13,867 nucleotides of DNA, from contig JAGYLS010000043.1 in assembly GCA_018400815.1 (NCBI GenBank), positions 1-13,867 on the forward strand, in the 5' to 3' direction. Below, one piece after another: positions 367-8,635 of the stretch; position 1 is the first letter of the stretch; each line of letters opens with the position of its first letter. Below the pieces are notes generated by a model. The model searched no databases and was not told the origin of the DNA. It was given only the letters and a program-made list of their open reading frames with translations. The stretch comes from Candidatus Oleincola secundus (lineage in GTDB: Bacteria > Atribacterota > Phoenicimicrobiia > Phoenicimicrobiales > Stramentimicrobiaceae). Made by a program: the position numbers and the translations under genes.

Positions 367-1287
367 TTATTCTTTACTTTCAGTAGCCTCAATAGGTAGT
401 ATCTTCTTTTTCAAACTATTTTCCAGAACAAAATCGCCTATATTACAACCAAGGTGCCTGGCAATGACCGGACATTTGGCAATTAACAAAAAGAATAAAG
501 GATTTGGTTCACCGGAAAGTGCTTCATAGTTTCCCTGTCCTTTGCTAATTATCATTTCTGCCTCATCAAAAATACGTATAAATTCTGGAGAACAATAGTC
601 CAAAACAACTCCCGGGGAATCCGCACCACATGAAATAATATTAGCATAATGATTAATGCCACAAAAAATTGCATCATCAACAAGCGCATCATTTAAGACT
701 GGTTTCCCTTTCACCACATAAATAACATTTTTATGGTAATAAGTTACCAGATATTCTATTAGGATACGATCAAAGACTACTTCGCCAGAATTATCAGCAA
801 GATAAAGAACTGAATCAACATCTAATAGGTGTTGACGGAAAGAAAAGTAATCAAAATGTTCTCCATCACTATTTACCTGTGAATCAAAGTCAATTCTTAG
901 CATTTTATTAATTTTTTCACTAATACTATCAAAGCCTTCTATTCCAAAATCAATGATATTGCCGATAATTGACAATCTAATGGCTGTTAAAAGCTTATTT
1001 TCTGCATCCTTCATTTTGATTTTCATTTCCGGGTACATCTTTAAGGCCATTTTATTACTTTCTTCTTTAATTTCTCTGTAAGGATCTTTCTTACCGGTTA
1101 CTTTGCTAATCATGGTATAAATTTTACTTCCCATCTCTGCTGGTGTTGTATTCAAGGAAAAATGAGGGATTATCTCAGATAAGTTGTTTAATACCTCTCT
1201 TTGGACCTCCTCACTGGCACCAGATATTCTCGCAGCCTTGAGTGCCTGCTGATAAAAACAGGGAATACAGTCTAAATAACTTTTCAT
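367..1287 (-). CDS. DUF89/ARMT1-like damage-control metal-dependent phosphatase, subfamily I type
   Basis: Motifs: N-terminal DCIPC, GNIIDFG, YLADNSGEVVFD, PVLNDA, SKGQGNYE, C-terminal AKC. SD GAGGAG upstream. Confidence 0.9.
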   Translation of the reverse strand: MKSYLDCIPCFYQQALKAARISGASEEVQREVLNNLSEIIPHFSLNTTPAEMGSKIYTMISKVTGKKDPYREIKEESNKMALKMYPEMKIKMKDAENKLLTAIRLSIIGNIIDFGIEGFDSISEKINKMLRIDFDSQVNSDGEHFDYFSFRQHLLDVDSVLYLADNSGEVVFDRILIEYLVTYYHKNVIYVVKGKPVLNDALVDDAIFCGINHYANIISCGADSPGVVLDYCSPEFIRIFDEAEMIISKGQGNYEALSGEPNPLFFLLIAKCPVIARHLGCNIGDFVLENSLKKKILPIEATESKE

Positions 1288-1328: not shown

Positions 1329-1529
1329 CTATAATCGTTTATCAATTGTTCCATCTGGCATCATATTATCTGGATGGTATTGACCTCTTTCCTGCATCTT
1401 TCTTCTAAGACAACACCAATATTCTGATTTGCAGTATTGTTCCACCCACTTTTTATCAATTAAATTTTGCTCTGTATAGCGCCTTATTGGGCAAACGGAA
1501 AACCAATGGCAGGTTTCCCTGTTATTCAT
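1329..1529 (-). CDS. Small Cys-rich protein of unknown function, probably metal or Fe-S binding
   Basis: 66 aa with CxWxxxCP, YCxxxxxCCxR and HPDNMMPDG. SD GAAGGTG upstream; co-oriented with the cluster. Confidence 0.75.
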   Translation of the reverse strand: MNNRETCHWFSVCPIRRYTEQNLIDKKWVEQYCKSEYWCCLRRKMQERGQYHPDNMMPDGTIDKRL

Positions 1530-1649: not shown

Positions 1650-2522
1650 TCATAGTTTAATCTGAGAAATAATGGATTGAATTATTTTCTCAAAAGCCTG
1701 ACTTGTTTCACTTTCCTTATTGCTGCAAATAAAAGGTTGACCCTCATCTGCAGACTTAACCATTTGTACATCGATGGGTATTGCGCCCAGAAATGGTACC
1801 TTAAAATCACTTGCTGCTTTCTTCCCTCCCCCAGTCATAAATAAATCAATCTTTTCTCCGCAATTAGGACAACGAAACCCGCTCATATTCTCAATAATTC
1901 CCAAAATAGGAATATTAATATCTCTTAAAAAATTAATACATTTTCGTGAGTCAGATAAAGCAATCTCCTGAGGCGTAGTTACTATAACACCACCGTCTAA
2001 CTCGGGTATAAGTTGACAAACAGATAGCGGCTCATCTCCGGTACCGGGAGGAGAATCGATAATCAAAAAATCGAGGTCACCCCAACTGACTTCAGCTAAA
2101 AACTGTTTGATTGCTATTCCTTTTAAAGGTCCTCTCCAAACCAACGGGGTATCGGGCGATTCTATCAATGAAGCCATAGAAACAGCTGACAGATTTTCTC
2201 TAACCTGTATTGGTTTAATCTGTCCGTTACTGCCGGTTAATTTTTCTCCTTCAAATCCTAACATCTTGGCTACAGAAGGTCCGTGTAAGTCGGCATCCAG
2301 CAAGCCAACCCGGTATCCTTTCTCGGCTAAAGCACAGGACAAATTTACGGAAACCGAACTTTTCCCGACACCTCCCTTATTTGACAAAACTAAGATTTTA
2401 TGTTTAATATTTGCCATATTCTGCTTTAATTTTTCGGCCATTTCCTTGTTACTCTGTTCTCTTTTCTTTCTCATTTCTTCTTGGGCTCTTTGCTGTGCTG
2501 CTTTAGTATTTACATTATCCAA
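1650..2522 (-). CDS. mrp: Mrp/ApbC/NBP35-family P-loop ATPase, Fe-S cluster carrier
   Basis: Deviant Walker A NKGGVGKS, DADLHGPS, VWRGP, DSPPGTGD, VTTPQ, ENMS..CPNC. TTG start with GAGGAAG upstream. Confidence 0.93.
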   Translation of the reverse strand: MDNVNTKAAQQRAQEEMRKKREQSNKEMAEKLKQNMANIKHKILVLSNKGGVGKSSVSVNLSCALAEKGYRVGLLDADLHGPSVAKMLGFEGEKLTGSNGQIKPIQVRENLSAVSMASLIESPDTPLVWRGPLKGIAIKQFLAEVSWGDLDFLIIDSPPGTGDEPLSVCQLIPELDGGVIVTTPQEIALSDSRKCINFLRDINIPILGIIENMSGFRCPNCGEKIDLFMTGGGKKAASDFKVPFLGAIPIDVQMVKSADEGQPFICSNKESETSQAFEKIIQSIISQIKL

Positions 2523-2597: not shown

Positions 2598-2822
2598 TTA
2601 TTTTCTAACCATTAGAGAACCACATTTGGGACATTTTATTTCTGTACATGGTATACCAGGCTCATGTGTTTTAACCGTTCCACAGGAAGGACAAACACAC
2701 TGTCCTCCGGGTCCGGCGCCTCCGGCAAATCCTCCTGTACCTGTATTAACATTTCCTCTTCCTTGTCCTCTTCCGGTTCCCGGTCCCTGACCTCTTGGTC
2801 CAGTTCCGTCACCTCTGGGCAT
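2598..2822 (-). CDS. Small protein with DUF5320-like Gly-rich N-terminus and a 6-Cys C-terminal metal-binding domain
   Basis: MPRGDGTGPRGQGPGTGRG followed by CVCPSC..H..PC....CPKC. Strong SD GGAGGTGAG. Confidence 0.85.
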   Translation of the reverse strand: MPRGDGTGPRGQGPGTGRGQGRGNVNTGTGGFAGGAGPGGQCVCPSCGTVKTHEPGIPCTEIKCPKCGSLMVRK

Positions 2823-2851
2823 CTAGCTCACCTCCAATCAAAATATTATTA

Positions 2852-3229
2852 CTAATGATGGTGATCTTCTTTTTCAATTCCGTATCCCTTGCCTGCACCA
2901 GGCTGACAAAGAGAATCACTTCCTTCTAACTTTCCCTCAATATATCTTTTAACAACATCATTGATTTCACCAGTAACACCAACTATTGGTTTTATTCCTT
3001 TCTCAGAAAAGAGATCTGCTGCCCTCTTCCCCATACCACCACAAATAATGACATGGACATCTTTTTCGGCAAGAAACTTCGGCAAAAAACCGGTGCGATG
3101 ACCGGGATTTGAAATCGTTTCCTGATTAATTACTTCCTTATTTTCCAATTCAATTATTGCAAAAGAAGGGCATCGTCCAAAATGATCTGATACTTGATTA
3201 TTATCAACGGCTATTGCAATTTTTTCCAT
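2852..3229 (-). CDS. NifB/NifX-family (FeMo-co-binding-like) protein with His-rich tail
   Basis: KIAIA...VSDHFGRC, NPGH, VIICGGMG; C-terminal LC..G...EDHHH. Confidence 0.88.
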   Translation of the reverse strand: MEKIAIAVDNNQVSDHFGRCPSFAIIELENKEVINQETISNPGHRTGFLPKFLAEKDVHVIICGGMGKRAADLFSEKGIKPIVGVTGEINDVVKRYIEGKLEGSDSLCQPGAGKGYGIEKEDHHH

Positions 3230-3250
3230 AAAAATTCTCCTACTATAACT

Positions 3251-3616
3251 TTAATTTAATCCTGAATGTGGTTCTACATTTGATTGGTTTGATGGTTTTA
3301 AATTTCCTTTTTTGTATTCTTGAATGGCTGAATCAACAGTACCGCTTGCTCCGGAAATCAACTGTATACCGGCAGCATTCATAGTTCGATATGCATTAGG
3401 TCCACAATTCCCACTAATAACAACCTCTACACCCTTGTCTGCCATCATCTGACCAGATTGAATTCCAACTCCACCCATACCACGAATATTACTATTTTCA
3501 ATTGCCTCGTACTCATCATTTTCAGTATCATAGATAATAAAATAAAGACATCTTCCAAATCTGGGATCAATTTCACTTTTTAATTCCGGTCCCGAAGAAG
3601 TAATTGCAATTTTCAT
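3251..3616 (-). CDS. NifB/NifX-family protein (orange-protein-like)
   Basis: MKIAITS...IDPRFGRC.YF, GGVGIQ, VISGNCGPNA; C-terminal V..H.G. Confidence 0.9.
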   Translation of the reverse strand: MKIAITSSGPELKSEIDPRFGRCLYFIIYDTENDEYEAIENSNIRGMGGVGIQSGQMMADKGVEVVISGNCGPNAYRTMNAAGIQLISGASGTVDSAIQEYKKGNLKPSNQSNVEPHSGLN

Positions 3617-3705
3617 TATTTCTCACCCCTGTTTTTTTTATTTTTCTTCACTATCTTTTATTATACCGCTTATGGCAAGTTTATAGAATATTCACTCTTT
3701 TCTTT

Positions 3706-3758
3706 ACCAAAATGAATCACCAGCAAAGATCATTTCCCTGCTGGTGATTCATTTTGGT
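3706..3758. repeat. Perfect 20-bp stem with 13-nt loop, no U-tract (possible mRNA-stabilising or attenuating hairpin)
   Basis: ACCAAAATGAATCACCAGCA (3706-3725) pairs with TGCTGGTGATTCATTTTGGT (3739-3758), 11 nt after the DUF5320 stop codon. Confidence 0.85.
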
Positions 3759-3769
3759 CACTTATAACA

Positions 3770-4159
3770 TCACTCTTTTTTTTCTTTCTTTAATTCAGCT
3801 AATCTTTTATTCACTGCATCTAATTCAGCCTTAATATCCTCAGCCTCTGCCTGGAGTAAATCCATTTCCTGTTTGGGTTCCATTTTCCCCTGATAAGGGT
3901 AAGTAGCTCCATAAACAGGATAGGCAGGCGGTGCCGGTGTATAAGCAGGATATGCCGGGTAACCCGAGTATGCACCTCGTCGGAAACCCCGACCAGCACC
4001 TCGTCCAAACCCGCGACCGAATCCGCCCCTAAATCCCATTCCTAAACGACCACCAACAGGATTGGCATAACCCGGAACAGCATAACCAGCACAATAACCC
4101 GCCGCTCTCCCAGTCATTGGACCAAGGCCGGCAGGACCAGTTCTATCACCACTTGGCAT
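3770..4159 (-). CDS. DUF5320-family protein (Gly/Arg-rich, Tyr/Pro-rich, C-terminal coiled coil)
   Basis: MPSGDRTGPAGLGPMTGRAAGYCAG.. signature, GFGRG repeats, heptad-like C-terminus. SD AGGAGGTGA. Confidence 0.88.
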   Translation of the reverse strand: MPSGDRTGPAGLGPMTGRAAGYCAGYAVPGYANPVGGRLGMGFRGGFGRGFGRGAGRGFRRGAYSGYPAYPAYTPAPPAYPVYGATYPYQGKMEPKQEMDLLQAEAEDIKAELDAVNKRLAELKKEKKE

Positions 4160-4187: not shown

Positions 4188-4664
4188 TTATTCATTTTTT
4201 TGACAATCCTTGCATTCCCCATAAAATTGGAGAATACAACTCTTCACGGAAAACCCGTATTTTCGGTAAAGTTTTTCCTTCATTTTCTTAATCACATTAA
4301 TTTCTTCTTCAGTCAATTCGCTTGAGTCAAAAAAAGTACGGCAATTCATGCATACTAGATGTTGATGACAGTTTATCCCTTCAACTCTCCCTGCCAATTC
4401 GTATCTTGCTCTTCCTTCACCGAATTCTACCTTGATGACCACACCATTCTTTATCAAAAGATCAAGTGTCCTGTAAACAGTTGTCAGCCCAATAGCAGGA
4501 TATATCTTATAAGCCCGTAAATATATTTCTTCAGCGCTTAAATGCTTTTCGGCATTATTCAGAATCTGAAGAATAATCCTTCTGGGCATAGTCACTCTAT
4601 ATCCCCAGCCCTTAAAATGACTTGGCCAATTTTCCGGTGGCCCTTTACCAAATCTACCCTTCAT
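4188..4664 (-). CDS. Fur-family metalloregulator with Gly/Pro/Trp N-terminal extension
   Basis: RVTMPRRIIL, HLSAEEIY, TVYRTLDLL, HQHLVCMNC and GECKDC (two CxxC structural Zn motifs). Confidence 0.93.
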   Translation of the reverse strand: MKGRFGKGPPENWPSHFKGWGYRVTMPRRIILQILNNAEKHLSAEEIYLRAYKIYPAIGLTTVYRTLDLLIKNGVVIKVEFGEGRARYELAGRVEGINCHQHLVCMNCRTFFDSSELTEEEINVIKKMKEKLYRKYGFSVKSCILQFYGECKDCQKNE

Positions 4665-5091: not shown

Positions 5092-7248
5092 TTATTGATT
5101 AGCTTTATAATTCTCCCAAACTTCCAACACTTCGGGAAAATCAATTTTTAGTTTTTTGATGGTCTCCAGATTAGGTACGCCATTCTCATCCCATCCCTTT
5201 CTCTGGTATACAACATCACACAGTGATTTATATTGACTCTCTCTGTAACTTCTTAAGGCTCTTAGCTTTTCCTCAACTGTTTTCCCTTCGGTTGAAAATC
5301 CTACTTTTTCTTCCAATTGTTTATCATATAATTCGACATTTGAATCATATTCCTTCATAGTTACCGGACCCATTGCACGATAGGGAATTGCATCATTTTT
5401 TCTTGTTCCAAAACCCATCTTTAAATTTAGCAATCTCTGGAAATTATGCACTGCTTCCGATTGTTTAATAATATCTTCTGGGGAAATCTTTTTCCCGGTT
5501 ACTCCTTCAAATATCCAGCAATAATTTTCTACGTGTTCCGGTACTTTAGCAGCTGCAATACCTGAAAATATTTTCTTATTATCAGCCGGTTCAATGTCAT
5601 TCCAGGGAAGCTTGCAAAGCCCTACCAGGGAAAACCAGGTCCGAAATAGTGGAAAATAATACAAAGCTTCTGCTTTATCCTCAAAGGTAGGAATCTGATT
5701 GTTCACCTGGTCCATAAAAATCAGCCAGGATTCATCATGCTGCGGTCCTTTGTTGGCAATGCCGTATCCACCCTGCTGAGCAAGCGATTCTTTGGTTCCG
5801 TATTCAGAAAATTCCATTCCTTTGCATTCCATTCCAATGTCATTTAAAAAATTCTCATCTGCCTGATAATGTTCGGCAAAATATTTCTTGCATCGACGCA
5901 CTCCCTGGCCGGCAATTTTTCCAAAACCTTCTCCCTGGGCAATTTGATGGATAAGTTCTAACAGGGCATTACTGTTGCCGAATGTTAAATCCAACCCCCC
6001 GGTTCTCTCTTTATTTAAAATACCATTTTCATAACATTCCATTAGAAAAGCAATGGTAGTGCTCACCCCAATGGTGTCCAAGCCATAATGGTCACAATAA
6101 AAATTAGCCTCTAAAACAACATCCGGGTCAAAACATCCACAGTTACCACCAAATCCGGCTGCTGTCTCATATTCAGGTCCGTCAACTATTACTTCTTCTC
6201 CTTTTAATGGACCGGTTTTCAGTTTAAATTGATCAACGGCATGGGAACAGCGTAAATTACATCCTATCCAGCAGGAATCACCTGGTTGCTTCTGTGAAAA
6301 ACGATTCAGCCAAACCTTATTACTTATATTTACTGCCTGGGGATGTGAACTGAATTGATAATTATGAACAGGTAAACAGTTATGGTTATTCATGTGGTCT
6401 AAAAGATTGGCAGTGCCGGTTTCACGCATACCATTCTGAATATGGTCTAAGGAAAGTATTTCTTTTGTTAAACGCTGCCCTGCTTTTTTTAATAATTCAG
6501 GATTAGCTGGATTGTTGCTACTTCCCTTTACACCTTTATATTTAACAACAATGGCAGCTATTTTTTTATTTCTAAGAACTGTTCCTGTACCGCCTCTTGC
6601 TCCCTGTTTATAACGTATTTTTTTACGGCCACGATCATACCAGCTAAAATTTAGGATTCCCAACAGTGCATTTTCTGCTCCCTGGCCAGCAGACACGACA
6701 CTGATATTGCTCTTATCTTCTTCGCTTTCTGCAAAATGTTCAGTCAGTTTCTCTGCTAAAATATAAGAATTGGTTTCCTCGTATGGAGACACCTGTACTT
6801 TAATTTCACCTTTATTTCCATCAATAAATATAACTACATCCTGCTCAGCCTTACCTTGAATCTCTAAGGCATCCCATCCCGAAAATTTTAACAATGGGGC
6901 AAAATAACCACCAGCATTGTTGTCATTAGCACTTCCGGTTTCAGGGGAAATACTGACTACATGACTCTTACCACAACCCGAATATTGGGTTATCCCGCAA
7001 ATTGGTCCAGTACAAAACACCAATTCATTTTCCGGGTCATCCCACTTTGTCTCCGGCTTCACTGCCTGCCATAGGTACCATAAACCATAACCACGACCAC
7101 CGGTTAACACTTCTTTCACTTTTGCAGGAACAGTTTTAATTTTAGCCTTTTTGTCGGATAAATTAAGATAAAGGACCTTATCCGTATAACCTTTATTTAC
7201 TTTGGCTGGCTGGTATTGAGTTGACATCAGCAAACGTTCTTCAGACAT
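5092..7248 (-). CDS. aor: Tungsten/molybdopterin aldehyde:ferredoxin oxidoreductase (AOR/WOR family)
   Basis: GGRGYG, CTGP, SP.TG, LKFSGWDA.EIQGKA, RGGTGTV...K..AI, CWIGCNLRC, GPEYET, CDHYGLDTI, GLC, GWDENGVP. SD AGGAGG. Confidence 0.93.
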   Translation of the reverse strand: MSEERLLMSTQYQPAKVNKGYTDKVLYLNLSDKKAKIKTVPAKVKEVLTGGRGYGLWYLWQAVKPETKWDDPENELVFCTGPICGITQYSGCGKSHVVSISPETGSANDNNAGGYFAPLLKFSGWDALEIQGKAEQDVVIFIDGNKGEIKVQVSPYEETNSYILAEKLTEHFAESEEDKSNISVVSAGQGAENALLGILNFSWYDRGRKKIRYKQGARGGTGTVLRNKKIAAIVVKYKGVKGSSNNPANPELLKKAGQRLTKEILSLDHIQNGMRETGTANLLDHMNNHNCLPVHNYQFSSHPQAVNISNKVWLNRFSQKQPGDSCWIGCNLRCSHAVDQFKLKTGPLKGEEVIVDGPEYETAAGFGGNCGCFDPDVVLEANFYCDHYGLDTIGVSTTIAFLMECYENGILNKERTGGLDLTFGNSNALLELIHQIAQGEGFGKIAGQGVRRCKKYFAEHYQADENFLNDIGMECKGMEFSEYGTKESLAQQGGYGIANKGPQHDESWLIFMDQVNNQIPTFEDKAEALYYFPLFRTWFSLVGLCKLPWNDIEPADNKKIFSGIAAAKVPEHVENYCWIFEGVTGKKISPEDIIKQSEAVHNFQRLLNLKMGFGTRKNDAIPYRAMGPVTMKEYDSNVELYDKQLEEKVGFSTEGKTVEEKLRALRSYRESQYKSLCDVVYQRKGWDENGVPNLETIKKLKIDFPEVLEVWENYKANQ

Positions 7249-7315
7249 TACAAACCTCCTGAATATTTATTTTTTATTACTCAATATAGTATATATTATT
7301 ATATCTTCCCATTTT

Positions 7316-8635
7316 CTATCCGGAAAATTTATGTTGCAATATATCTTGTAAATCAGGCTTCCCGATTTCCTGTAATTCATATCTTACTCTGACATATTTT
7401 TTAGCAATTCTCATGACTCTACTTAAATCAATTGGCGTACCTATAATCACCAGTTCAGCATCGCTATTATTTATAGTGGCTTCCAATTCCTTAATCTGTT
7501 CCTGGCCATAGCCCATTGCTGGTAATAATGTACCAATAAGGGGGTATTTTTGATAAGTTTTTTTTATGCTGCCCACAGCAAAAGGTCTGGGATCAATAAT
7601 TTCCTTAGCACCATATTTCTGTGCAGCAACCACACCTGCACCAAATTTCATTTCACCATGCGTTAAGGTTGGACCATCTTCAATAACAATTACCTTTTTA
7701 CCTCTAATTGTCTCTGCCTGCTCGACTTGAATAGGTGAGGCTGCCTCAATTAATATTGCTTCTGGTGCCAGTAAATAAATATTTGTCCTTAATTGTGCAA
7801 TGTTTTCCGGATTTGCAGTATCAATTTTGTTAATTACCACAATGTCTGCCATTCTTAAGTTAACTGCGCCCGGATAATAGGTTGTTTCATGACCAACTCT
7901 ATGGGGATCGGTAACTACAATGTGTAGATCCGGCTGATAAAAAGGAATATCGTTATTGCCTCCGTCCCATACAATTACATCAGCCTCTTTCTCGGCTCGC
8001 TGTAAAATTTCACCATAATCTACACCGGCATAGACAATATTGCCCAAATCGATATGGGGTTCATATTCTTCCCGCTCTTCTATGGTACACTGATATGAGT
8101 CCAAATCATTATAAGTTTCATAACGCTGCCAAATTTGTTTGGTTAAATCCCCATAGGGCATAGGATGTCGGATCACTACTACTTTTTTACCCATTTCTCT
8201 TAATATTTGGGTTACTTTACGGGTAGTCTGACTTTTCCCGCTCCCGGTTCTGACTGCACAAATAGAAACCAGGGGTACTTTTGCCTTTAACATAGTATTT
8301 TTAGGACCCATCAACCTGAAATCAGCCCCTTCTGACAAAACCATCGAAGCTCTTTCCATAACATACTGATGTGGTAAATCACTATAAGCCAGAATGACCT
8401 GATCGATATTGTATCGCTGAATTAAGTCAGGCAAATCCTCCTCGGGGAAAATCGGTATACCGTCAGGATAAAGTGGTCCGCTTAATTGGGCTGGATATTT
8501 TCGCCCGGCGATATCAGGAATCTGTGTAGCAGTAAAAGCTTTCACATGATAATCATCATTATTGCGAAAAAAAACGTTAAAATTATGAAAATCTCTCCCT
8601 GCAGCCCCCATAATAACAATATTTTGTTTTTTCAA
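7316..8635 (-). CDS. ArcE/arginine-synthetase-like P-loop enzyme (COG2403; often auto-annotated as GTPase or cyclic 2,3-diphosphoglycerate synthetase)
   Basis: MGAAGRDFHNFN, AFTATQIPDIAGRKYP, RTGSGKSQTTR, RHPMPYG, TIEEREEYE, WDGGNND, EDGPTLTHG, LPAMGY. TTG start with SD GAGGTGA. Confidence 0.8.
   Translation of the reverse strand: MKKQNIVIMGAAGRDFHNFNVFFRNNDDYHVKAFTATQIPDIAGRKYPAQLSGPLYPDGIPIFPEEDLPDLIQRYNIDQVILAYSDLPHQYVMERASMVLSEGADFRLMGPKNTMLKAKVPLVSICAVRTGSGKSQTTRKVTQILREMGKKVVVIRHPMPYGDLTKQIWQRYETYNDLDSYQCTIEEREEYEPHIDLGNIVYAGVDYGEILQRAEKEADVIVWDGGNNDIPFYQPDLHIVVTDPHRVGHETTYYPGAVNLRMADIVVINKIDTANPENIAQLRTNIYLLAPEAILIEAASPIQVEQAETIRGKKVIVIEDGPTLTHGEMKFGAGVVAAQKYGAKEIIDPRPFAVGSIKKTYQKYPLIGTLLPAMGYGQEQIKELEATINNSDAELVIIGTPIDLSRVMRIAKKYVRVRYELQEIGKPDLQDILQHKFSG

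Follow-up and report, generated by a model that had tools for sequence, protein, structure and literature searches.

The window analysed here, positions 1–13,867 of contig JAGYLS010000043.1 of Candidatus Oleincola secundus, encodes two small proteins of 129 and 74 amino acids (aa) whose open reading frames (ORFs), both on the minus strand, open with the same pattern, MPxGDxTGPxGxGPxTGR. Judged from profile matches and from a census of the pattern, these 18 residues, which we call the tag, are the strictly N-terminal signature of the Pfam family DUF5320 (PF17253), and the family DUF5320 itself is in essence a short N-terminal tag that is portable and stands before exchangeable modules. As a sequence object the tag is not new, being the head of PF17253, the first profile positions of which are the shared 18 residues; its portability to interchangeable modules is the addition. 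Full-text literature searches for DUF5320, PF17253, and IPR035205 returned no functional study. The host genome is a 2.0-Mb draft that is 86% complete.

The tag of the 129-aa protein (MPSGDRTGPAGLGPMTGR, residues 1–18; 4106–4159, minus strand) matches PF17253 from profile position 1, and that of the 74-aa protein (MPRGDGTGPRGQGPGTGR, residues 1–18; 2769–2822, minus strand) is conserved in an alignment of its homologues. Thirteen of the 18 residues are identical between the two. A first-pass annotation made from the DNA letters had picked out this pair, and its coordinates, its 13/18 count, and the minus strand were all verified, as were the different continuations that it described, into six cysteines in the 74-aa protein and into a low-complexity region and a coiled coil in the 129-aa protein; it had not recognised the tag as the PF17253 signature. 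When the whole proteins are compared by BLASTP, only the tag stretch aligns (14/21 identical, E = 3e-6). At the DNA level, 35 of the 54 tag-coding bases match, and for 9 of the 13 residues in common the two genes have chosen different synonymous codons, which argues that the pair is not a recent copy and that selection has acted at the protein level; the duplication behind it is old. Six further genomes of the host family (G076, G065, G066, G068, G069, and G072) hold a canonical DUF5320 match and, about 1.1–1.5 kb away from it, a match confined to profile positions 1–38/45.

The census scanned one genome per bacterial or archaeal species with the degenerate DNA pattern PxGDxTGPxGxGPxTG, no start codon being required. 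At least 123 stretches match, compared with about 0.03 expected by arithmetic under uniform base composition, and the tag match is therefore beyond chance. Eighty loci were taken with their flanks; two of them, L009 and L010, overlap on one contig, so that 79 independent places are represented. Bacterial matches come from Chloroflexota, Clostridia, Bacteroidota, Planctomycetota, Desulfobacterota-type lineages, Atribacterota, and Saccharibacteria, and archaeal matches from Thermoplasmata, Methanothrix, Bathyarchaeia, Hadarchaeota, Aenigmatarchaeota, and Pacearchaeota. The motif is thus not confined to recent duplicates, as the first-pass annotation had allowed that it might be, but is old and occurs in both domains of life. 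Among the matches listed there are 137 distinct tagged ORFs, and 135 of them have a start codon immediately ahead of Pro2. Since most tag residues are fixed by the pattern, conservation at those positions was taken from the homologue alignment; at Arg18, which the pattern leaves free, 128 of the 137 ORFs agree. Variants are missed by the pattern, for example fusions of the tag to a NifX-like domain that have Phe at position 4.

What follows the tag varies. Behind it the 137 ORFs carry a coiled coil (85 ORFs), a Gly/Arg/aromatic tail ending in Trp (17), a Cys6-His ribbon (15), a 2×[4Fe-4S] ferredoxin (1, in locus L079), or another sequence (11), and in the remaining 8 the tail is cut by the end of the locus. 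Together with a NifX-like domain of the NifXa type described below, at least five module types are found behind the tag (coiled coil, Trp-ended tail, zinc ribbon, ferredoxin, and NifXa-type domain); a sixth, PNPOx-like, is known from one record only. In three loci (L009, L018, and L057) three tail types stand side by side. A cysteine lies within residues 18–27 of all 122 non-ribbon ORFs and of none of the 15 zinc-ribbon ORFs, in which six cysteines come further on. The portability that the first-pass annotation had proposed is thereby borne out by the motif search and the listing of modules.

The 129-aa protein (3770–4159, minus strand) is the canonical DUF5320 form. It scores 86.4 bits against PF17253 over profile positions 1–99 (cut-off 27) and is a full member of the family; NCBIfam holds no model for it. 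The tag is followed by a GYCAGY segment with the single cysteine, Cys23, which belongs to a disordered Gly/Arg/Tyr/Pro region (residues 19–94), and then by a helix (residues 95–128). In an alignment drawn from the pattern matches, Met1 and Cys23 are invariant and Arg18 nearly so, all three being positions that the pattern left free. The AlphaFold2 model, built from 56 aligned sequences, gives residues 1–90 predicted local distance difference test (pLDDT) values of 44–54 and the helix values of 90–98. This helix corresponds to the C-terminal helix feature of PF17253 (profile positions ~70–99), in place of which the 74-aa protein has two short strands. The 76 residues from 19 to 94 comprise 19 Gly, 8 cationic, 15 aromatic, and 9 Pro residues and 1 Cys, with a pI of 9.9. 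A search for longer fused forms of the protein gave only three matches, two of them mis-joined or over-extended ORFs and the third a PNPOx-like fusion.

The 74-aa protein (2598–2822, minus strand) exchanges the GYCAGY segment, the tail, and the helix of the family model for a Gly/Arg linker (residues 19–40) and a Cys6-His zinc-ribbon-like module (residues 41–74). Its PF17253 match is restricted to residues 1–38 (profile positions 1–39) and, at 23.1 bits (E = 1.7e-4), falls under the cut-off of 27; some close homologues carry a precomputed PF17253 label, and NCBIfam gave no match. The ribbon residues are Cys42, Cys44, Cys47, Cys59, Cys64, Cys67, and His53, and the cysteine pattern is that of two CPxCG knuckles. 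The protein nevertheless stands for a clearly delimited family in its own right: there are 436 homologues of 40–130 aa, and in an alignment of 113 of them Pro2, Thr7, Gly8, Pro9, Gly13, Gly37, Gly40, Cys42, Cys47, His53, Cys59, Cys67, and Met71 are invariant, with Met1, Arg3, Gly4, Asp5, Gly6, Gly11, Gln12, Pro14, Thr16, and Gly17 conserved in at least 90%. In the AlphaFold2 model residues 1–40 are disordered (pLDDT ~50) and residues 41–74 form a small ribbon (pLDDT 80–88). A Foldseek search of this model against the PDB returned nothing at E ≤ 0.001; the best hit had E = 0.95, and the weak top rows were zinc ribbons and rubredoxins, none significant. In a search of 1.84 billion proteins, a profile of the family has 2183 representative matches at E ≤ 0.001.

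The ribbon is a portable module as well. The settings in which it occurs were taken from 32 longer profile matches scanned with Pfam, 14 of which were inspected as sequences. It is found after a PF04060 Fe-S domain, between rhodanese and NifX-like domains, and after NifX-like domains with or without the tag. Eight proteins of 770–1516 aa (P0244, P0246, P0247, P0250, P0263, P0283, P0289, and P0325) combine an N-terminal hydrophobic segment with two PDZ domains, 3–5 ribbons, and 1–4 NifX-like domains, an architecture that to our knowledge fits no described family. In five proteins the ribbon is fused to a DUF134 regulator domain (P0299, P0386, P0362, P0329, and P0332), and a further such fusion is present in locus L130 (968–1612). 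The whole tag–ribbon unit stands behind DUF134 in three of the five (P0299, P0386, and P0362) and is degenerate in P0329, these four having been inspected as sequences. In these proteins the ribbon occupies the place where other DUF134 proteins have a PF04060 Fe-S domain (L032), which suggests that the ribbon on DUF134 can serve as a metal or cluster sensor. In 11 of the inspected sequences the tag is internal to a longer ORF, and all 11 retain the Met that precedes Pro (P0254, P0257, P0268, P0299, P0317, P0324, P0336, P0345, P0362, P0386, and P0391), an observation that points to internal starts, to recent in-frame joins, or to a role for Met1 itself.

In the window, both tagged genes belong to one minus-strand operon headed by a gene for a Fur-family regulator, which is succeeded by the 129-aa gene, the genes for two NifX-like proteins (NifXa and NifXb), the 74-aa gene, a gene for an Mrp ATPase, a 66-aa ORF, and an ARMT1-like gene. 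NifXa (3251–3616, minus strand; 121 aa; PF02579, 92.4 bits) is tail-less and is the proposed receptor of the tag. NifXb (2852–3229, minus strand; 125 aa) matches PF02579 with 89.9 bits and also the NCBIfam model MrpORP (NF041136) with 108 bits at model positions 266–365, and corresponds to the C-terminal domain of that protein. The Mrp/NBP35-type deviant-Walker-A Fe-S carrier ATPase (1650–2522, minus strand; 290 aa; PF10609, 325 bits; KGGVGKS motif), which is the alternative candidate receptor, scores 368 bits against MrpORP at model positions 1–251, under the cut-off of 450. Mrp and NifXb together cover the MrpORP model, and the segment 1650–3229 (minus strand) is thus a split form of the published two-domain MrpORP; here each part has a gene of its own, the order of the parts is reversed, the 74-aa tagged gene stands in between, and neither part alone reaches 450 bits. 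In the host genome PF02579 matches only NifXa and NifXb, and, at 86% completeness, no DUF5320 match was found beyond those of the window. There are 1342 NifXa homologues, and the named ones at 60–70% identity are from Atribacterota, as is locus L067, which together with L007 repeats the gene order Fur–DUF5320–NifX–NifX.

The remaining features of the operon and its surroundings are as follows. The Fur-family regulator (4188–4664, minus strand; PF01475, 96 bits) was considered as a possible third carrier of the tag and ruled out, its N-terminus (MKGRFGKGPPENW...) being only a Gly/Arg/Trp-rich extension; this extension of ~25 residues (MKGRFGKGPPENWPSHFKGWGYRVT; 4590–4664, minus strand) precedes the Fur domain and resembles a DUF5320 tail, not the tag, in make-up, and the Fur genes of L007, L067, and L083 carry similar Gly/Arg/Trp-rich extensions. 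In the 153-nt gap between the 129-aa gene and NifXa there is a perfect 24-bp stem-loop followed by UUUUGG (3706–3758, minus strand), with a folding energy of −44.7 kcal/mol (z = −7.15; none of 200 shuffled sequences folds as well); it could be a partial terminator or stabiliser that raises the DUF5320 transcript above those of the downstream genes. The 66-aa ORF between Mrp and the ARMT1-like gene (1329–1529, minus strand) is Cys-rich, with five cysteines; it has no Pfam or NCBIfam match, and tblastn recovers it in only 1 of the 80 related loci. The last gene of the operon encodes an ARMT1-like/DUF89 “damage-control phosphatase” (367–1287, minus strand; PF01937, 235 bits). Directly upstream of the operon lie genes for a tungsten-type aldehyde:ferredoxin oxidoreductase (718 aa) and a 439-aa P-loop protein without clear family (5092–8635, minus strand), and G085, the genome of a relative of the window organism, shows the same order; this neighbourhood may point towards the supply of W/Mo-S or Fe-S cofactors.

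Fusions connect the tag, its tails, and the ribbon with NifX-like domains. Among the NifX-like ORFs next to tagged genes, 46 in number, 13 are extended at the C-terminus by at least 50 aa. Ten of these were scanned with Pfam, and eight match PF17253, seven of them over the cut-off. In seven of the eight the match starts at profile position 17–32, that is, without the tag; in the eighth, L056, it starts at position 2, although no PxGDxTGP is apparent by eye. In L023 and L056 a ferredoxin is added after the DUF5320 tail, and in L075, which has no PF17253 match, Gly/Arg repeats run straight into a ferredoxin. The ribbon is joined to a NifX-like domain in the same manner: in the L007 operon (Fur, DUF5320, NifX, NifXa–ribbon, Mrp), NifXa continues through a Gly/Arg linker into a tag-less ribbon of the 74-aa type (BLASTP against the 74-aa protein, 23/39 identical, E = 1e-15). 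The converse arrangement, in which the tag is followed by a cysteine, a linker, and a NifXa-type domain in a protein of 145 aa, occurs in L130 (1650–2087) and L131 (1730–2167). Each of the three possible pairings of tag-head, NifXa domain, and tail is thus realised in nature. A fusion of the tag to an ATPase was not found among the 137 tagged ORFs and the DUF5320 open frames of the 86- and 151-genome sets introduced below. Tagged ORFs that end in Trp and have no coiled coil are found in L018, L022, L024, L040, L051, L055, L057, L071, L072, and other loci, and Trp-Val, Trp-Ile, or Trp closes the sequence of several NifXa-type proteins that lack a tail (L018, L029, L045, L057, L062, L081, and L084); the C-terminal Trp may be a second short motif of the system.

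The company of tagged genes was counted in two ways, within 4 kb in the 80 loci (tblastn with the window proteins) and within three genes in the 75 loci with a called tag ORF; the gene maps hold spurious alternative-frame ORFs over G-rich genes, and only labelled families were used. NifX-like genes are the most frequent neighbours (54/80 and 37/75, respectively); the other window families counted are Mrp (23/80 and 24/75), ARMT1-like (19/80 and 11/75), and Fur (6/80 and 4/75). Clustering of the unlabelled neighbours, with Pfam scans of representatives, brought out three more families that recur: DUF134 proteins, PAS–sigma54 activators, and MinD/CbiA ATPases with two [4Fe-4S] motifs, the last with 26 members spread over 20 loci; within three genes, these MinD-ferredoxin ATPases are found in 20 of the 75 loci, DUF134 in 15, and PAS–sigma54 activators in 11. 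Further neighbours are FeoA/FeoB, DtxR, NifU-like, and CGGC proteins and three radical-SAM genes. The gene immediately downstream of the tagged gene is NifX-like in 20 of the 75 loci, Mrp in 7, and MinD-ferredoxin in 5. Gene context was also tried as a means of choosing between a NifX-like and an ATPase partner, and does not discriminate, since 36 of the 75 loci have an ATPase of either kind (Mrp or MinD-ferredoxin), and 37 a NifX-like gene, inside the three-gene range.

Co-occurrence was examined in two genome sets, and the figures are descriptive, related genomes not being independent. In the host phylum (86 genomes; DUF5320 at E ≤ 0.01), 52 genomes have both DUF5320 and PF02579, 8 have DUF5320 only, 5 have PF02579 only, and 21 have neither, so that PF02579 is present in 52/60 DUF5320-positive and in 5/26 negative genomes; several of the eight DUF5320-only genomes owe their match to a contig end or to a weak, helix-only hit. 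The second set was drawn from the order to which L050 belongs and numbers 151 genomes, each with a completeness of at least 90%. Here PF02579 is present in 66/66 DUF5320-positive and 43/85 negative genomes, while DUF5320 and the MinD-ferredoxin ATPase occur together in 57 genomes, DUF5320 without this ATPase in 9, the ATPase without DUF5320 in 7, and neither in 78. In this order, every DUF5320 genome is also a NifX-like genome, and the overlap is tightest with the MinD-ferredoxin genomes. Five genomes without a NifX-like gene near the DUF5320 locus all hold one elsewhere, in four of the five over the cut-off.

The set of genes around the tag in the 75–80 loci is the same as that of the orange protein (ORP) cluster of Desulfovibrio vulgaris, which comprises orp7-orp8-orp9, orp5-orp4-orp3, and the regulator OrpR in the operon descriptions excerpted from PMC6345978 and PMC8359166; common to both are NifX-like proteins, Mrp, the MinD-ferredoxin ATPase, and the PAS–sigma54 activator. 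The order DUF5320–NifX-like–Mrp, seen for example in L081, parallels the orp7-orp8-orp9 order given in the relevant part of PMC8359166. DUF5320 thus holds the orp7 position, and from gene order, as distinct from sequence comparison, we infer that Orp7 is a DUF5320 protein. The window resembles the ORP cluster in having two single-domain NifX-like proteins of the Orp5/Orp8 type. It differs in that it has no MinD-like ATPases with two [4Fe-4S] motifs (Orp3/Orp4), in that its regulator is of the Fur family and not OrpR, genes for OrpR-like proteins being found in 11 other loci, and in that its Mrp has no fused NifX-like domain.

A second known system bears on the tail. IssA of Pyrococcus furiosus, which stores Fe-S as thioferrate, consists of a NifX-like domain followed by a 70-residue tail that, according to the portion of PMC5524996 dealing with it, is proposed to bind anionic thioferrate by wrapping it. 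That tail is given there as 15 Gly, 7 cationic, 14 aromatic, and 11 Pro residues and 1 Cys, with a pI of 10.7, and residues 19–94 of the 129-aa protein come very close to it in composition. Fe-S binding by the 129-aa protein is predicted from this likeness. The arrangement is different: domain and tail form one chain in IssA, whereas here they are encoded by separate genes, NifXa and NifXb being tail-less, and the 129-aa protein carries the tag and a coiled coil, neither of which is mentioned for IssA in that portion of the paper. IssA-like fused NifX–tail forms are present in other loci.

On these grounds we tentatively propose that the tag may be a short docking peptide that tethers the module behind it to the NifX-like metal-cluster carriers encoded nearby, a reading that we place first without thinking it probable. 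It is ranked first since NifX-like proteins are the only universal companion of the tag, since the tails and the ribbon are fused to NifXa without the tag, and since the tag itself is found on NifXa; the fusion of Mrp to a NifX-like domain in MrpORP is the reason for taking the NifX-like domain as the hub. Under such docking, the 129-aa protein would supply an IssA-like cationic Gly/Arg/aromatic tail in trans to the tail-less NifXa, the tail would hold anionic Fe-S (or Mo/W-S) material, and carriers would become cross-linked through the coiled coil. The same carrier would receive from the 74-aa protein a Cys6-His ribbon able to bind a metal or cluster, placed between the NifX-like proteins and the Mrp ATPase, and the Fur-family repressor at the head would control the whole operon. 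As to the common partner “such as NifX or Mrp” that the first-pass annotation had suggested, co-occurrence and fusions make NifX-like proteins the best-supported choice, if only indirectly.

Several observations weigh against docking onto NifX-like carriers. PF02579 is common in any case (109/151 and 57/86 genomes), which limits the power of the co-occurrence, and the correspondence of DUF5320 with the MinD-ferredoxin ATPase is closer, whichever of the two is taken as reference (57/66 and 57/64). Genome G085 (84% complete) keeps an intact DUF5320 gene beside Mrp without any PF02579 match in the genome; its locus L129 (G085:C22:7500-17500) retains the aldehyde:ferredoxin oxidoreductase, the DUF5320 gene, and, after a 637-bp gap, Mrp and ARMT1, whereas Fur, the two NifX-like genes, and the gene of the 74-aa protein have been lost from it. 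Tag–NifXa fusions are uncommon, 2 of the 151 genomes having a full-length match. Free tagged tails and NifXa–tail fusions coexist in L005, L008, L022, L023, L037, L056, and L065, and the tag is thus not simply a substitute for a covalent link. The tag offers no hydrophobic anchor residues beyond Met and Pro, and AlphaFold2 gives it no structure. Lastly, the ORP complex as listed in excerpts of PMC6345978 consists of Orp3, Orp4, Orp5, Orp8, and Orp9, without Orp7.

The tight match to the MinD-ferredoxin ATPase, the tightest two-way phyletic match of DUF5320, leads to a rival explanation by analogy, in which the tag would be the ATPase-contacting, perhaps stimulating, peptide of an adaptor for deviant-Walker-A ATPases (Mrp/NBP35 here, MinD-ferredoxin Orp3/4-type elsewhere) and the C-terminal modules would be its cargo or clients. 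We regard this as unlikely, though not far behind docking onto NifX-like carriers, while noting that an ATPase lies within three genes as often as a NifX-like gene, that G085 retains DUF5320 and Mrp alone, and that the tag is strictly N-terminal with a near-invariant Arg18. ParA/MinD adaptors such as McdB, ParB, and MinE are likewise small and disordered or coiled-coil, are encoded next to a deviant-Walker-A ATPase, and combine variable cargo parts with a conserved N-terminal peptide that binds and stimulates the ATPase; in passages of PMC11321042 these adaptors are said typically to bind their ATPase through basic N-terminal residues, and McdB to be disordered or coiled-coil, to form condensates, and to have an invariant C-terminal Trp, a form comparable to that of the 17 of 137 tagged ORFs that end in Trp. 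The likeness is architectural only, without sequence relation, and the ATPases in question are Fe-S carriers, not positioning ATPases. The host genome (86% complete) gave no MinD-ferredoxin match with one query at E ≤ 1e-5, so that Mrp would have to be the receptor there, and a single, highly conserved peptide would be required to suit two ATPases that have diverged. Mrp/NBP35 proteins have no adaptors that we know of. The tag is moreover Gly/Pro-rich with no amphipathic pattern, and it has not been found fused to an ATPase, although tag–NifXa and NifXa–tail fusions exist. An equally doubtful candidate is that the tag would bind a ligand itself, its alternating glycines making up, together with Asp5, Thr7, Thr16, Arg18, and the cysteine that follows, a “nest” for an anion or cluster, and would hold Fe-S or thiometallate in concert with the cationic tail. 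Such a head would account for the cysteine that follows every non-ribbon tag, for the conserved residues being polar or Gly/Pro only, for the presence of the tag on proteins that bind clusters themselves (NifXa and ferredoxin), and for the tag–ribbon unit behind DUF134 in three of the five fusions seen; the Met kept before every internal tag fits a need for a true N-terminus or for Met itself. The tag alone, however, has neither Cys nor His, the NifXa–tail fusions work without it, and the AlphaFold2 models show no preformed structure. We know of no metal or cluster site with the tag sequence.

Two further explanations were weighed. In one, which we consider improbable, the tag would have no separable function, the two proteins being old paralogues with a least-drifting N-terminus, or their Gly/Arg parts binding nucleic acid in the manner of an RGG box. 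Both proteins match the same Pfam model, and a computational screen, in the results excerpted from PMC7565180, names one DUF5320 and one DUF134 protein among the archaeal carriers of a putative quadruplex-binding RG motif. Divergence alone is nevertheless insufficient to explain C-terminal modules of unrelated folds (zinc ribbon, ferredoxin, NifX-like, and coiled coil), the tag is far more conserved than the adjoining Gly/Arg region, and the neighbours are Fe-S handling genes and not nucleic-acid enzymes. In the other, the tag would serve a modifying enzyme as leader or recognition sequence, or would mediate packaging into a protein shell, with the 74-aa protein as a ribosomal peptide precursor or encapsulin-type cargo, in line with the leader-peptide and cargo-loading analogies that the first-pass annotation had drawn. 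The N-terminal position of the tag with six cysteines after it, a radical-SAM neighbour in three loci, and the ARMT1-like/DUF89 gene in 19 of 80 loci and in the window would suit such a role. We nevertheless hold it to be very improbable, and neither analogy finds support here: the ten window ORFs scanned contain no radical-SAM, protease, or export/transporter family by Pfam, and no encapsulin (PF04454) was found in the host genome (86% complete), other shell families lying outside that search. Both the leader-peptide and the encapsulin readings were rejected on these two empty searches. The two CPxCG knuckles, in addition, fold as a ribbon in the model (pLDDT 80–88), and the same ribbon is also fused to NifX-like, DUF134, and PDZ proteins.

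The family is found in the orange protein-type Fe-S clusters of many anaerobes, with DUF5320 present in 66 of the 151 genomes of one order and in 60 of the 86 genomes of the host phylum. The Cys6-His ribbon, with its 2183 representative proteins, emerges as a module without a curated model that is tied to NifX-like domains. A wider form of the proposal, which we hold with less conviction than docking as such and think doubtful, is that the tag could be the universal address of an ancient anaerobe system present in bacteria and archaea, in which whatever module bears it, whether cationic storage tail, Cys6-His ribbon, ferredoxin, or a further NifX domain, would be docked onto NifX-like carriers; out of such separate parts cells would put together an IssA-like assembly for storing and delivering Fe-S (or Mo/W-S), which regulators could sense, the tag–ribbon unit being fused behind DUF134 in some genomes. 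DUF5320/Orp7 would in that case have its first function. In either form, the tag, the NifX-like fusions, and the IssA-like composition of the tail turn an anonymous family into a testable hypothesis on Fe-S storage or hand-over.

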